DNA of 64,000 bases from a virus (taxonomy: Duplodnaviria > Caudoviricetes). The stretch spans positions 11,327 through 75,326 of the IMG/VR virus record IMGVR_UViG_3300037418_001301; one strand, written 5' to 3'. Position numbers and translations under genes: made by a program. Positions within the stretch are counted from its first letter, which is position 1; the number at the start of each line of letters is the position of its first letter. Below, one piece after another: positions 4,323 to 32,746 of the stretch. The notes below the pieces were generated by a model. The model saw only the letters and a program-made list of their open reading frames with translations, ran no database searches and was not told the origin of the DNA.

Positions 4323-4912
4323 TGACGTGCGCAGTTCAGGGATGTGAAAAGGCGGCCAAGGTAAAAGGATGGTGCAATCCACATTATCAGCGATGGATCA
4401 GGCATGGCGACCCTGTCGGGGGAAGAACGGCTCAAGGAGAACCGTTGAAATTCCTCCAAGATGTCGTCCTCGCCTATAAAGGCGACGATTGTTTGATCTG
4501 GCCATATGTCAAAAATCAAGACGGCTACGGACAAATGAAGGTCCGCGGCAAGATGGAGACGGTGTCGCGCATAGTTTGCGAGATCGCGCATGGAATGCCT
4601 CCGAGTCCTAATCACGAAGCCGCCCATAGTTGCGGCAATGGGGACAAGGGCTGCTGCACTCAAGAACATTTGCGATGGGCAACGACCAAGGAGAACTTCG
4701 CCGACCGTCTAAAGCATGGAACCTATACTCGTGGCGAGCGGCATCCGATGGTGAAGCTCACAGAGGCAGACGTTCATGAGATTAGGCGTCTGCGAGGTTC
4801 AGGCGTGCCGCTTTCGGATCTCGCCGACAGGTTCTCGGTGACTAATGTAACGATTAGCCAGATCGCCCGACGAAAGACATGGATATGGCTTGAAGAGGAA
4901 AGGATTATCTGA
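4322..4912 (+). CDS. HNH (His-Me finger) homing endonuclease with C-terminal HTH
   Basis: CLIWP...GYGQM...HEAAHSCGNG..GCC..EHLRWATTKEN..D; GERHPMVKLTEADVHEIR tail. Confidence 0.85.
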   Translation: MTCAVQGCEKAAKVKGWCNPHYQRWIRHGDPVGGRTAQGEPLKFLQDVVLAYKGDDCLIWPYVKNQDGYGQMKVRGKMETVSRIVCEIAHGMPPSPNHEAAHSCGNGDKGCCTQEHLRWATTKENFADRLKHGTYTRGERHPMVKLTEADVHEIRRLRGSGVPLSDLADRFSVTNVTISQIARRKTWIWLEEERII

Positions 4913-5460
4913 TGACGGAAGCCCTCCGCAACACGACGCTGAATGAGGACGAGCGCGCCGCGCTCTACGGCTATCTCTGCCGTCAGGAACGCGACCAACT
5001 GGCGGTGATTGCGGAGGCGGAAGCCAAGCGCAAGGAGAACTTCAAGAAGGCAAAAGAGTGGTCTTTCAGCAAAGAGGAGATCACCTTCCACGAAAAGGCG
5101 CGCAAGGCCGGTGAAGGCTCCTCGATCATCAAGAAGCATGCTCTTCACAAGACGATCCTGATCAAGATTGGGTTTATCTCGGATGATCGTGGCGGCGACT
5201 TGCTCTCAGATCGCGTCGACAAGCTCCAACTCCACAATCGCCGCGGATACGACGACGGACTATGCGGGGAAGGCGGTCCAGGAGCCTCAGGTTTCGCCGC
5301 CAACAGCGATGAGGACCGCGCCTATATGGACGGCTGGAAAGAAGGACAACGCGTCTACGTCGAGAATTGGCAGGCTGCAATGGAGAAGGCGATTGCCGCC
5401 AAGACGAATGAAGAGCCGCCGGCAAGCACGGACGCGGACCCCTTCGAGGACGCTGCATAA
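4912..5460 (+). CDS. hypothetical protein, GapR-like helical N-terminus and RMF-like C-terminal motif
   Basis: Helical E/K-rich N-terminal part; RGYDDGLCG...AYMDGWKEGQ. Confidence 0.55.
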   Translation: MTEALRNTTLNEDERAALYGYLCRQERDQLAVIAEAEAKRKENFKKAKEWSFSKEEITFHEKARKAGEGSSIIKKHALHKTILIKIGFISDDRGGDLLSDRVDKLQLHNRRGYDDGLCGEGGPGASGFAANSDEDRAYMDGWKEGQRVYVENWQAAMEKAIAAKTNEEPPASTDADPFEDAA

Positions 5461-29039: not shown

Positions 29040-30350
29040 ATGGCCGGCGAAAATCAAAACATGGCGGCGGAAGATGATGTCCGCGATCTCATCCCGACCG
29101 CCGATAATGTCGAAGTTGTCGAAACCCGGCAACGCGAGGCTGAACCAGCCCCGACCGCAGTTCAGGAAGAACCGAAGAAGCCCCGCGAGGGCGGCAAGTA
29201 TGACGACAAGCGCGCATCGATTGTCGAAAAGCTGAAATCGCAGCGCAGTGGGCAGGATGTGCCGCTGAAGACCGTCGCTGAAGAGGCGCAGCAAAGCCGC
29301 CCCGCACCACAGCAGGCGGAAGTGCGCGAAGAGCGCACCCCGCAGCCAGTGGAACAGGCCGCTCCTGTAGTGGTCAAGACCGAAGACATTCCGGCGCCAG
29401 TGCGCCATAAGCTCAAAGTCAACGGCCGCGAGGTCGAAGTTGACGATGCACAGTTCACAGCGCTTGCCCAGAAGGCCCTTGCCTCCGAGAGCATTCTCGA
29501 AGATGCCAAGATTCTGAAGATACAGGCGCAACAGAGATTGACTGAACTTGATCGGTTAATGGCCAACCAAAGCCACAATGATCAGCCTCAGTCGAAACCA
29601 GCGAATGCCCCGGCAGAGGATACCAAACCGGCCACGGATGCAGAGTTGGACGAGATCATCGATCGTATCCAGACAGGTGATCTCAAAGAAGGCGTGGAAG
29701 CCCTCAAGAAGTTCGGAAAACAGGTTACGGACCAAGTGCTGGAAACAGTCAGGTCCAATCTCGGAGACGTCGATGCGCGTATGGCTGCTACCATACAGCA
29801 TGCGCAGGAAACCGCTCGTATCCAAGCCGAAACTCAGAAGGTGCTTGACGACTTCGTTTCCGAAAACCCTGATTTCTCTCAATCGCAGCGCCGGCTGGAA
29901 GTCTTGCTCGACTCCACCGTCGAAGTGATGCGAGACAACCTCTATGCGATCGGCGTCAGGCCGGAAGTTCTTCAGAATTTCGCGCAGACCCACGGCCTTG
30001 CCCCACAGGCGGCCATCGGTTTTGCCTATCGCAAACTGCGTACGGAAGGGCAGCCTCTGGCTGATCCATCCGCCGTCATGAAGACGGCAGTAAAGAACGT
30101 CAGGGAAGCTTTCGGAATGCCGGAACCGCAACGTGGAGAGGCAAAGCCCGATCCCGCTCCGGCTTCAGCAGACAACTCAAACTTCGTGGCCGAGCGCATC
30201 GAAAGAAAGCAGGCCATGGCTCCCCAACCCAGACGGGCTAACATCTCCCCCGGAAATGACAGCGCACAGCCCGCCAATACCGAAGACGCTACCAATCAAA
30301 AGTATCGTCAGGTGGTGGCGCAAATGCGCGCATCGAGAAAGGGCAGGTAA
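29040..30350 (+). CDS. capsid scaffolding protein
   Basis: Charged, low-complexity protein; HKLKVNGREVEV; basic C-terminus; directly upstream of the MCP. Confidence 0.75.
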   Translation: MAGENQNMAAEDDVRDLIPTADNVEVVETRQREAEPAPTAVQEEPKKPREGGKYDDKRASIVEKLKSQRSGQDVPLKTVAEEAQQSRPAPQQAEVREERTPQPVEQAAPVVVKTEDIPAPVRHKLKVNGREVEVDDAQFTALAQKALASESILEDAKILKIQAQQRLTELDRLMANQSHNDQPQSKPANAPAEDTKPATDAELDEIIDRIQTGDLKEGVEALKKFGKQVTDQVLETVRSNLGDVDARMAATIQHAQETARIQAETQKVLDDFVSENPDFSQSQRRLEVLLDSTVEVMRDNLYAIGVRPEVLQNFAQTHGLAPQAAIGFAYRKLRTEGQPLADPSAVMKTAVKNVREAFGMPEPQRGEAKPDPAPASADNSNFVAERIERKQAMAPQPRRANISPGNDSAQPANTEDATNQKYRQVVAQMRASRKGR

Positions 30351-30377
30351 CCCGTCATCCTCTGAAAGGACGATGAC

Positions 30378-32686
30378 ATGGCCGGACAACTTTGGTCAGT
30401 CAACACCCAGGGCGGTTATCTCTATTCCGATAACCTCTCTGACCACCTCCGCTTCGAACTGCAGCCGCGGACCAAGCTCCGCAATCTCGCCGACGCCTCC
30501 GACAAGGCAATCGGCCTGCACAAGGGCAACACCTTCCGCTGGGATCGGTTCTCCAAGCTCAACAAGCGCGGCGGCCCGATCGATGAGCAGCAGAGCATGC
30601 CGGAAACAAACTTCACCATCGGCCAGGCAAGCCTGACCATCGGTGAATTCGGTTATAGATTAGCCGCTTGATTTGGATTGGTAGTACCTTCGAAAGGTAA
30701 CCGCCTTCGTGCCATATGTATCTGTGGCGCGATGGCACTTTATGCAAAGCGTTCTCAGATTGCTCGGATTCATCCCCAAAGATGGCTCCGAGGAAGTTGG
30801 GAGAATATGATCAACGTGCAGAATTATGCGAGACCCACGCCCTTCGTGGTTACGGTCCCCGCATAGTTGGCAGGTGTAGTTATCGCGTTTTAGAATTTCG
30901 AGGCGCAGCTGGCGATATTCGCTGGTGTCTCGGAACCCTCTGACGCCGCCACACCAATTGCCGTGATCCTTTCCAGTCGGGAAATCCCTAGAATACTCCT
31001 TCTTGGTTTTTCCTCTATTCCAAGCTACCTGACCTTTCTTTGACCGAAGCCATTTGGTTCGAAGAACTGGGTCAGAGGCAAGCCTCTCATTGACGTGTGA
31101 CCAGTCGCAATAGGCTTCATGGCCTTTGCGAAATCCCATGCGTTCAAGCGATGGATGGTCTCCTTTCTTCATCCCTCTGTTCCAGCCCGCAACGGTTTGG
31201 GTCTTTCGGGTTTTGGGATGGTGACCAACCTTATATTCGCCAATGATCAGGCCGCCGCCTTCAGACCTTGGACGATACACTGGGAATGGATAGAACGTTT
31301 CACCGCATCCGCATTTGCAGATAACAGCGGTTCGTTCTCTTTGCGCTTTGCTTACGCCCAAGTTAGTTCCTTTCGATGAGTAAATTCCGAATCTAGAAAA
31401 CGGGGTGAATTGCTGGAAAGCCCAACCGCTGAGAGGCGAGGGTAATCAGCAGCCAAGCCGCATATGTAAGCCGAAAGGCCTAGGGATGCGGAAGGTTCAA
31501 CGACTAGGCTTTGACGAAAGAATAAGAAGCCCACGAGCGCCCTGCGCCACACCATTGGCGATGATATAGTCTGAGCTACCGCGAAATCGGTAGAAGCGAG
31601 AGTTTAAACTACACTCGCGATAACACAAACTGAATTCTGTACCGTACACCGGACTCCTCGAGAACCTCGGGGAAATCGATGTCAAGGACATCATCGACCA
31701 GACCCTCCGCGACGACGCACGTCAAACGCTGGATCGTCTCGTCGGTTACCAGATGTTCCAGACGCCGCTTCGTGTGGCGCCGACATCCGGCACATCGACA
31801 ACCGCTGTCACGTTGACCACCAACAGCGCGACCGCAACCACCAACAACGTCGAACTCGGCACTGGCCACATCAAGGCCATTTCCGATATCATGAAAGATC
31901 GTAACGTGCCCGCGTATGATGGGGACGACTACGTTGCGGTCACTCATGCCACGACGATGCGCACTTTCAAGAACAGCCTGGAGACCATTCACCAGTACAG
32001 CGAGACTGGTATCCAGCTGATCTTCAAGGGCGAAGTAGGCCGCTACGAATCGATCCGCTGGATCGAGCAGAACGAAATCCCGAAGGGTCACGCCAATGAC
32101 GCGGCGTTCAACCTGACCTCCGGTTCCGCCAACTACGTCTATGACGCCGTTGCCGACGACTGGAACAACGGGAAGTCCTCTTGGGCTCTGTTCATGGGCT
32201 CGGACACCGTTCTGGAAGCGCCGGCCATCCCTGAGGAAATCCGCGCAAAGTTGCCCGGCGACTACGGTCGCGACAAGGGCATCGCTTGGTTGAACTGAAG
32301 AGGTATAGCCAAGCCTAAACTCCGTGAACTGACTGGAAACCCCTGAGAGCACAGAACGCCACAGCGTAGCTTGGAAAGGCAAGCGCGATGGCTTGAAAAG
32401 TTCTGTGATTGGGCAATCAGCAGCCAAGCCCCGAGAACCGGGGAAGGTTCAACGACTAACATGTAGGGCCAAGCGGCCCGAAGTGCGGAGCGCCCCTTAC
32501 CCAAGGGGACGAAGATATAGTCTCGTCCCATAGGAAACTATGGGCAGCAATTGCCAGATGCGTTTGGCAAGAGCGGCACGGTTTTAGCGAAACCGTGTGA
32601 AGATTTCCGATTACCTCGGCGGTGCCGGCCTGACCCACCAGGACGCCACCAACGCGCGTGTCATTTTGTGGGACAGTGCTGCCTGA
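30378..32686 (+). CDS. N4-gp56-like major capsid protein split by two group I introns; exons 30378-30653, 31633-32290, 32610-32686 (336 aa)
   Basis: Spliced junctions read TIGEFG|NSVPYTG and GIAWY|YLGG...WDSAA*; exon lengths 276+658+77 = 1011 nt = 337 codons including the stop. Confidence 0.9.
30654..31632 (+). mobile_element. group I intron 1 (979 nt) with an HNH ORF in loop L2
   Basis: 5' exon ends in U paired with G (cggt/gccg, P1); terminal G 31632; P10 tatagatt pairs with the 3' exon; P3 cggggtg/cgccctg; core motifs gaattgctggaaag, aatcagcagcc, ttcaacgacta, gatatagtct. Confidence 0.92.
30660..31361 (-). CDS. intron-borne HNH homing endonuclease, antisense to the intron
   Basis: TTG start with AAAGGA RBS; CKCGCG Zn-ribbon; NUMOD3-like AWNRG repeats; CQLC...HVDHI...NLRTLCIKCH. 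Confidence 0.88.
   Translation of the reverse strand: MGVSKAQRERTAVICKCGCGETFYPFPVYRPRSEGGGLIIGEYKVGHHPKTRKTQTVAGWNRGMKKGDHPSLERMGFRKGHEAYCDWSHVNERLASDPVLRTKWLRSKKGQVAWNRGKTKKEYSRDFPTGKDHGNWCGGVRGFRDTSEYRQLRLEILKRDNYTCQLCGDRNHEGRGSRIILHVDHILPTSSEPSLGMNPSNLRTLCIKCHRATDTYGTKAVTFRRYYQSKSSG
32291..32609 (+). mobile_element. group I intron 2 (319 nt, no ORF)
   Basis: P1 gcttggt/gccaagc with U-G; P10 gaggta/tacctc; P3 ctccgtg/tgcggag; aatcagcagcc, ttcaacgacta, aagatatagtct; P9 cccatag-gaaa-ctatggg; terminal G. Confidence 0.93.
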
Positions 32687-32746
32687 TCCGGCGGGGCGGG
32701 TTAGCGCCCGCCCTTTCCATTTCTTCAAATCGAAAGGACATTGGAA

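Follow-up and report, generated by a model that had tools for sequence, protein, structure and literature searches.

The window, the 64,000-nt stretch of DNA analysed here, raises the question of what an endonuclease gene does backwards inside an intron of a phage major capsid gene, and of how it could be expressed there. The capsid gene consists of three exons parted by two group I introns, both of which lie in the window and score in Rfam, and an HNH homing-endonuclease gene occupies the opposite strand of the first intron:

30378–30653, plus strand: capsid exon 1, 92 codons, ending ...GEFG; placed by its contiguity with exon 2 in intron-less alleles
30654–31632, plus strand: group I intron 1 (RF00028), 979 nt; the 5′ splice site follows U30653, and the intron ends with G31632
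30660–31361, minus strand: HNH homing-endonuclease gene, 233 aa, TTG start, TAA stop at 30660–30662
31368–31373, minus strand: Shine-Dalgarno-like AAAGGA, 6 nt upstream of the TTG (tccttt on the plus strand), read from the sequence
31633–32290, plus strand: capsid exon 2, matching phrog_1357, major head protein
32291–32609, plus strand: group I intron 2, 319 nt, no ORF; RF00028 at 76.2 bits; P1 pairs gcttggt with gccaagc
32610–32686, plus strand: capsid exon 3, completing ...AW-Y-YLGGAGL...SAA, then a stop codon

The first exon junction is fixed because more distant relatives lack the intron. Exons 1 and 2 are contiguous at exactly the predicted junction in 26 intron-less capsid alleles (L135–L160), so removal of intron 1 restores the host reading frame exactly and the junction is proven. 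Intron 1 scored 65.8 bits against RF00028 (E = 1.8e-14, core at 31354–31593; Rfam covariance model, gathering score 50) and has two group I hallmarks, a U30653·G30663 wobble at the 5′ splice site and the terminal G31632. The 3′ end of intron 2 was set by two intron-less alleles (L131 and L132) and one X3 contig, in which 2 letters separate 32290 from 32612. A candidate 3′ splice site for this intron at 32597 was ruled out; the intron-less alleles read W-Y-YLGG, which places the site at 32609. In the sister phage L133, intron 2 carries a sense-strand HNH gene of another family, so this one family of capsid genes has intron HNH genes in both orientations.

Within intron 1, the loop that holds the HNH gene is closed by P2, which lies directly next to P1:

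30650–30666, plus strand: P1 hairpin, 6 bp, with the splice-site wobble and the guide sequence at 30661–30666; taken directly from the letters
30667–30677, plus strand: P2 5′ strand; the minus strand of the same bases is HNH codons 229–232
30690–30701, plus strand: possible inner extension of P2, tcgaaagg (30690–30697) with cctttcga (31369–31376) and taac with gtta (31362–31365)
31386–31396, plus strand: P2 3′ strand; in relatives the equivalent bases form, on the other strand, the predicted −35 region of the HNH promoter
31397–31632, plus strand: J2/3 and the ribozyme core (P3 to P9) to the terminal G, from the Rfam alignment

P1 opens with c30650–g30666 and continues through two g-c pairs, the wobble, u-a and a-u; covarying versions occur in relatives (CGGU/GCCG, GGGU/GCCC and CCGU/GCGG). 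In P2, c30667 pairs with g31396 and u30668 with a31395, a u×u mismatch follows, and pairing resumes from g30670–c31393 through a30677–u31386. A sequence-only reading of this DNA had bracketed the HNH gene with P2, and the helix, at 30667–30677 with 31386–31396, is now backed by compensating changes in the HNH-less intron of a sister phage (gatcggg/cccgatc) and by 12 relatives whose P2 sequences differ and still pair. The whole P2 stack came to −25.4 kcal/mol (RNAduplex); its inner extension is tentative, being an 8-bp match between two ~40-nt windows that could be chance. The HNH stop codon spans the P1 loop and 3′ strand, and codons 229–233 overlie the guide sequence and the P2 5′ strand. These overlaps support the conclusion that a single set of bases encodes HNH residues when read from the minus strand and forms P1 and P2 in the plus-strand RNA. 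Such dual use had been claimed before, and the stop codon and last five codons confirm it; the claim was right about the P2 5′ strand, whereas the part of P1 involved is its 3′ strand (the guide sequence) and not its 5′ strand.

The encoded protein matched Pfam PF01844 over residues 164–212 (31 bits, E = 2.7e-7; curated cut-off, 21.4 bits) and 22 PHROG families, 19 of which are named HNH endonuclease. The ORF first read at 31361 to 30660 on the minus strand, with its TTG and AAAGGA, stands, and the Rfam score of intron 1 upholds its antisense placement in L2. The protein has 403 homologs, mostly of ~230 aa. In an alignment of 26 sequences, the window's included, 38 columns are invariant, among them both CxxC pairs and the three catalytic positions (C164, C167, H185, N201, C206, C209 and H210, in 26/26). 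The catalytic His, Asn and His and the two Cys pairs of a beta-beta-alpha metal finger are present, and the protein is predicted to be a nuclease. The N-terminus MGxSKAQ is kept in most of the aligned sequences; because this N-terminus and the HNH residues are conserved in the family, we favor the long 233-aa ORF, beginning at the TTG, over the 170-aa product recorded for this contig. The two nearest homologs (P0001 and P0002) are 74–75% identical. Searches of isolated phage genomes (tblastn and blastn) returned only distant HNH domains (<60% identity, ≤64% coverage), and hence no cultured close relative, as well as short matches to the intron-2 core. A metagenome scan added just two further family members, L161 and L162. 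Another member, L051, is found in Aromatoleum anaerobium LuFRes1 (NZ_WTVG02000039.1:320359–327036), a candidate culturable carrier.

The closest PDB match, by sequence and by fold, was the HNH endonuclease of phage GVE2 (5h0m; profile E = 1.5e-9; top Foldseek match), and one PHROG match is annotated as terminase small subunit. Both would fit a nuclease with a housekeeping role in the phage, such as a nicking HNH associated with terminase, as in GVE2, that sits in the intron by chance. The distribution of the gene makes this highly improbable, since it is wholly absent from phages whose capsid exons are 97–99% identical and, in every relative inspected, lies in the same intron loop and never beside terminase genes. 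Distant HNH relatives (30–40% identity) have no adjacent group I core, which indicates that the intron link is specific to this HNH family.

All 13 distinct relatives inspected carry the HNH gene backwards in the same loop, with the intron in the same capsid motif. In 15 of the 16 fetched loci and in L161 (13 distinct places), the strand opposite the HNH gene has a group I core directly upstream of the HNH start; locus L008 gave no Rfam match even at E ≤ 1. When 16 loci were compared with the capsid exons, the gene fell between exon 1 and exon 2 in every one. The near-identical sister phages, L131 among them, have, at the same site, a 292-nt HNH-less intron with its compensating P2, and despite the similarity of their exons the intron core is just 79–80% identical (31383–31632 aligned, including the P2 3′ strand). 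At this capsid site, alleles with both intron and HNH, with the intron alone and with neither were all found, and the first two forms also turn up together in other metagenome assemblies from soil and rhizosphere. These alignments show presence/absence polymorphism among near-identical phages, in which the intron has been laterally replaced. The gene thus shows the residence expected of an intron-encoded homing endonuclease: it lies inside the intron and is sporadic at one site among close relatives. It is dispensable, because the closest relatives have lost it, and may be decaying in the window.

We conclude that intron 1 is probably a composite mobile element, a self-splicing group I ribozyme with an HNH gene backwards in L2. 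Its anatomy, its intact and conserved HNH gene and the same layout in all relatives inspected are observations; splicing, minus-strand transcription, cleavage and homing are what we infer.

That the HNH gene needs an antisense transcript of its own, as had been proposed, follows from its orientation, and relatives carry a TATAAT-type sequence on the appropriate strand. All 11 distinct relatives checked have such a box in L2 on the HNH strand, exact in seven and matching at 5/6 positions in the other four, and in 2000 shuffles exact matches averaged 0.54 and never exceeded 3, versus the 7 observed. One relative locus, L014, reads TTGACT-17-TATAAT (11/12), and the box is absent from HNH-less L2 loops. 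An extended −10 element (TGnTATAAT) was considered for the box and dropped, as in most loci the TG abuts the box, and only L052 has it at the correct spacing. The relatives' promoter is a prediction from consensus matches only. The HNH message appears to be leaderless in four of the 11.

For the window copy, the earlier remark that no clear promoter is visible proved accurate: the minus strand from 30300 to 32700 has no promoter-like site of at least 9/12, and its best candidate reaches 8/12 (TTTCCA-18-TAGATT). The L2 stretch from P2 to the start codon, at 24 nt, is shorter than in all relatives checked, and the start is TTG versus ATG or GTG in those relatives. Since this copy has no family promoter box and begins with TTG, it is doubtful whether it is expressed. 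It might even be silent and awaiting loss late in a homing cycle, with its ORF open, its own promoter deleted, no protein made and the intron persisting only by splicing. We consider this possible, if unlikely. The lost box, the short L2 upstream of the start, the TTG and the lack of any promoter-like match on the minus strand all agree with it, as do the sisters already without HNH, an HNH-less clade that nests inside the HNH-bearing introns in the core tree, and the minority status of the HNH-plus form in other samples (depth 3–5 versus 22–50, these contig depths being rough). However, the ORF is full length and retains every invariant family residue, its Shine-Dalgarno sequence is good and correctly spaced, an independent sample (X2) yielded an identical HNH contig, and a consensus scan would miss weak or non-consensus promoters.

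Under the reading that we prefer, a mobile ribozyme with its HNH gene, the ~700-nt HNH stretch would be a mere loop closed by P2 on the capsid pre-mRNA, and the ribozyme would fold despite this loop and rejoin ...GEFG to NSVPYTG.... Ribosomes on unspliced RNA would read five intron codons and then terminate at the TGA of 30669–30671. HNH protein would come only from a separate minus-strand transcript, which in relatives would arise from a built-in sigma-70-type promoter, its −10 box in L2 and its −35 region on the P2 3′ strand, and would be leaderless or have a ~30-nt leader. With a promoter of its own, the element would make endonuclease independently of late capsid transcription. In co-infecting or superinfecting relatives, the HNH protein would nick or cut capsid alleles that lack the intron, close to the conserved G|NSVPY motif, and repair off the intron-bearing copy would spread intron and HNH gene together. 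The window copy may be weakly expressed or heading for loss, as has already happened in the sisters.

The minus strand past the HNH stop has no terminator-like site, so a minus-strand transcript would probably run into antisense exon 1. Repression of capsid splicing by the antisense RNA had been suggested in the sequence-only reading, and such a transcript might double as an antisense regulator that pairs with the capsid pre-mRNA (L2, P2, P1 and exon 1) and holds back its splicing or translation until overwhelmed by late transcription. The probable extension into exon 1 and the position of the relatives' promoter inside P2/L2 would suit this role, and there is said to be a precedent in psbA of cyanophage S-PM2, where Millard reportedly tied an antisense RNA to the intron and endonuclease region in 2010. 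We nonetheless regard regulation of this kind as quite improbable, because the sister phages manage without HNH and its strand-specific elements, which would make any regulation dispensable, and because effects of convergent transcription are expected with or without selection.

Only tentatively do we propose that the backwards orientation is itself an adaptation. A host-type promoter in L2/P2 might allow HNH to be made early, or from a prophage, while the late capsid gene is silent, such that a resident phage could cut the capsid gene of incoming relatives that lack the intron, which would amount to both homing and exclusion; once the late capsid gene is strongly transcribed, collision or RNA pairing might shut HNH off. 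If this were true, both strands would be in use, the P2 3′ strand doubling as the −35 region and the P2 5′ strand and guide sequence as C-terminal codons.

The sequence-only reading held that antisense intron endonucleases come mainly from eukaryotic rDNA. This is incomplete, as there is a phage precedent in the capsid gene of mycobacteriophage LittleE (Cluster J), which has a probable group I intron with endonuclease gene 14 on the bottom strand (Pope et al. 2013, PMC3706429). Splicing of that capsid gene was shown by RT-PCR and N-terminal protein sequencing, and gp14 is a LAGLIDADG/I-CreI-like protein of 177 aa with an HNH-like C-terminus and no close mycobacteriophage relatives (PMC3706429). 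The two loci share a split major capsid gene, an opposite-strand endonuclease in the intron and a junction defined by intron-less relatives, but the window enzyme is a 233-aa zinc-binding HNH protein from a family of ~400 that matches HNH models only and is not LAGLIDADG-like, and host phylum and capsid insertion site differ. The loop, the P1/P2 overlap and the promoter were analysed only here. The layout itself is not new, and beyond LittleE our literature search gave no direct report of a bacterial or phage group I intron with its endonuclease gene on the opposite strand. Reviews of bacterial group I introns do not take up such genes; in Hausner 2014, neither "antisense" nor "opposite" nor "orientation" appears.

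Passages of PMC3073962 that draw on Johansen et al. 2006 describe group I introns of nuclear rDNA in which antisense genes with their own promoter encode I-DirII and other His-Cys box endonucleases. As described there, the gene is antisense to both ribozyme and host gene, as in the window, and I-DirII expression is independent of host-gene transcription; the gene there has a Pol II promoter and a spliceosomal intron, its message has a poly(A) tail, the host gene encodes rRNA and the enzyme is of the His-Cys box type. Unlike I-DirII, the window has an HNH gene in a bacterial setting and a protein-coding late gene, with a sigma-70-type promoter predicted in relatives. HNH genes on the sense strand of phage introns include I-HmuI, I-PfoP3I (PMC3428280) and PhiPA3 gp210 (PMC11620839). 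Like the window's, these reside in phage group I introns, and their products nick the intron-less allele and drive homing or co-infection competition; they lie on the intron's own strand, whereas the window's gene lies on the opposite one and its HNH domain is C-terminal. A different separation of enzyme and intron was reportedly described by Zeng, Bonocora and Shub in 2009 as collaborative homing, in which a free-standing F-CphI gene serves the ORF-less psbA intron of cyanophage S-PM2. There too the endonuclease transcription unit is apart from the intron RNA and yet the intron insertion site is targeted, as we propose for the window, but the F-CphI gene lies outside the intron, whereas the window's HNH gene lies within L2 and travels as a unit with the ribozyme.

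LittleE, the only phage case in the literature, was mentioned in passing, and the locus described here shows that the layout is no one-off. A lone reverse-strand HNH gene within a split capsid gene can serve in annotation as a marker of an intron. In this uncultured soil phage and its kin, an HNH family of ~400 members appears to live backwards in one conserved capsid motif, in phages whose contigs are assigned to several bacterial phyla, and its elements combine a promoter that is predicted to be built in (in relatives) with bases that serve both RNA and protein. They form a natural series at one site, from intron-less through intron only to intron with HNH, which is suited to asking how endonuclease expression avoids disturbing a very highly expressed late gene.

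Rfam searches across the 64 kb revealed only two group I introns (gathering score, 50), both on the plus strand and both hosted by the major capsid gene (phrog_1357 major head protein), which lies downstream of an SU10-type portal gene. The virus record that contains this DNA is 75 kb, and contigs of the phage recur in rhizosphere and soil metagenomes. Intron 1 carries a predicted HNH homing-endonuclease gene on the opposite strand, the sole long minus-strand ORF within an otherwise all-plus structural module. The features are:

30650-30666, plus strand: P1, the splice-site hairpin, 6 bp with a U30653.G30663 wobble
30670-77 with 31386-93, plus strand: P2, the helix closing loop L2, gatttgga with tccgaatc plus two outer pairs (from the sister alignment)
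31361..30660, minus strand: HNH ORF, 233 aa, TTG start, AAAGGA 6 nt upstream
31354-31593, plus strand: group I core 1, Rfam 65.8 bits
32262-32544, plus strand: group I core 2, Rfam 76.2 bits
32610-32686, plus strand: capsid exon 3, placed by intron-less alleles

Because the exons of 26 related capsid genes without an intron (L135-L160) are contiguous exactly at the predicted junction, between ...GEFG and NSVPYTG..., intron 1 spans 30654-31632 (979 nt). Intron-less alleles for intron 2 (loci L131 and L132, and metagenome contig X3, where 32290 is joined to 32612 with two letters between) read W-Y-YLGG; intron 2 is therefore 32291-32609, and these alleles rule out a 3' end at 32597.

The HNH protein passes the Pfam HNH model, and 19 of the 22 PHROG families it matched are named HNH endonuclease. 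The HNH endonuclease of phage GVE2 (5h0m) was both its best solved relative by profile and the top Foldseek match to an AlphaFold model (mean pLDDT 76). Confidence was about 90 in the HNH domain and lower in the N-terminal 140 residues, which we infer to be the DNA-recognition part. Among 403 homologs (E<=1e-3), those above 45% identity are mostly about 230 aa. An alignment of 26 sequences revealed a conserved N-terminus, a CxCGC motif, and invariant C164, C167, H185, N201, C206, C209 and H210. For this contig the database lists a product (P0003) of only 170 aa; comparison with the homologs favours the longer ORF and its TTG start. The HNH gene is genuine and its ORF intact, confirming the sequence-only reading of a minus-strand HNH ORF inside intron 1. 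The gene call of P0001, a homolog, is extended at the N-terminus by 60 residues (...LVVEPSA...GLAADYPR...). These are the conserved ribozyme core translated in antisense, and the window contains the same spurious ORF at 31352-31555 (minus strand). Automatic annotation misreads both ends of backwards HNH genes, over-extending P0001 and truncating P0003.

We fetched 16 relative loci, representing 12 distinct places, whose HNH proteins share 48-59% identity with the query. All 16 have the HNH gene between homologs of capsid exons 1 and 2, with capsid exons only 32-63% identical to the window's, and in 15 of them a group I core that reaches the gathering score lies directly upstream of the HNH start on the opposite strand. 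A metagenome scan added one further locus with an opposite-strand core (L161). Titled carriers were Aromatoleum anaerobium and contigs binned as Thermodesulfobacteriota, Deltaproteobacteria and Thermotogae. Judged by these comparisons, a backwards HNH gene in a capsid intron is a family trait; HNH relatives at 30-40% identity had no adjoining introns. At L008:2400-3800, an insert of some 960 nt separating the capsid exons carries the backwards HNH gene and gives no Rfam group I match even at E<=1; its core shares only about 50% identity with that of the window, and the ribozyme is either a diverged subtype or degenerate. In four loci (L003, L008, L011, L052), the HNH-bearing intron is inserted 8 nt downstream relative to the window, after ..TC(G/C)GU in the NSV codons, and the guide sequence matches the shifted site (GCCG or GCGG), suggesting that the element has shifted between two similar, closely spaced sites. 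L009 has a second group I intron in capsid exon 2 near residue 205 (reverse complement, about 4605-4921), at a site different from that of the window's intron 2. L157 has a group I core scoring 89.7 bits (L157:1928-2186) immediately before a capsid gene that otherwise has no introns; the core presumably belongs to the gene upstream.

Four sister loci (L131-L134), whose capsid exons are 97-99% DNA-identical to the window's, have intron 1 at the same site, as a form of only 292 nt without HNH. In the alignment, the window has one ~690-nt block in place of a short ~25-nt loop. The loop-closing helix is gatcggg/cccgatc in the sisters and gatttgga/tccgaatc in the window, so that by sequence P2 is a compensated helix, bearing out its earlier proposal. 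The equivalent helix differs in sequence at 12 further loci, pairs in every case, and ends usually 6 nt, occasionally 8-10 nt, before GUGAAYUGC of J2/3-P3. P1 likewise covaries in relatives (CGGU/GCCG, GGGU/GCCC, CCGU/GCGG). The HNH stop codon (30660-62) spans the P1 loop and P1 3' strand, and codons 229-233 overlie the guide sequence and P2 5' strand, supporting the earlier structural reading. A stop codon lies no more than 4-9 nt from the splice site at six other distinct loci, and the C-terminal tail varies in length and sequence across the family, as expected if the RNA dictates the tail. P1 and the T-rich P2 5' strand (30650-30676, plus) were flagged as terminator-like on the capsid-sense strand, as in three relatives (L014, L009, L052), at counts not above shuffles; this probably reflects just P1/P2, and its location within a late gene deserves to be kept in mind.

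From the P2 3' strand to the 3' splice site, the window and sister introns differ by 20%, compared with 1-3% in the exons and 3-6% in the upstream 1.5 kb. Two distinct intron lineages thus occupy a single site in almost identical phages, implying lateral replacement. In a short, unrooted core tree, the HNH-less introns form a clade that falls among the HNH-bearing ones, adjoining the window's (support 0.79; 1.0 one node out), so loss of HNH in the sister lineage is the likely direction of change. Contigs from four other samples contain the HNH-plus form (X2 identical over 702 nt), HNH-less joints (30672 to 31391 or 31403), and intron 2 both present and absent. Among near-identical phages, intron 2 is absent (L131, L132), 307 nt (L134), 319 nt (window) or 785 nt (L133). 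In the L133 form (L133:3158-3942), an HNH-like ORF of 184 aa from a different family lies on the sense strand near P9 (L133:3392-3946), and thus both gene orientations occur within one capsid gene family. An additional 489 letters are present in contig X5 at 32559/32565 and probably represent the L133 insert.

A TATAAT-like hexamer occurs in L2 on the HNH strand of all 11 distinct relatives examined, roughly 16-18 nt beyond the P2 3' strand complement: exact TATAAT in seven (2000 shuffles: mean 0.54, max 3), TATAGT in three and TATCAT in one. The -35 position coincides with the P2 3' strand. At one locus the sequence is TTGACT-17-TATAAT (promoter scanner 11/12), and two others fall below the scanner threshold solely through a weak -35. 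At four loci an ATG follows the -10 box by 5-7 nt, predicting leaderless messages; at the remaining loci the leader is about 30 nt long and contains GGAGG or a comparable Shine-Dalgarno. HNH-less L2 loops do not have the box, so it is part of the HNH gene rather than of the ribozyme. As consensus matches, these sites amount to a predicted built-in promoter. In the window copy, which differs from relatives in its TTG start, the gap between the start codon and the P2 3' strand is only 24 nt, and L2 has no TATAAT-like box. The scanner found no match on the minus strand of 30300-32700 (best candidate, 8/12), so the earlier failure to find a clear promoter holds for this copy.

Opposite-strand genes go unmentioned in a 2014 review of group I introns in bacteria, and the 2011 Edgell review (PMC3073962) cites only I-DirII in Didymium rDNA. 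This kind of element is already in print, without structural analysis, from mycobacteriophage LittleE (Pope et al. 2013, PMC3706429), although the LittleE enzyme is from another family. What is new here is the family-wide picture of backwards-HNH capsid introns, the exact loop that houses HNH, the bases that serve both RNA and protein, a predicted built-in promoter, and a natural allele series at one capsid site.
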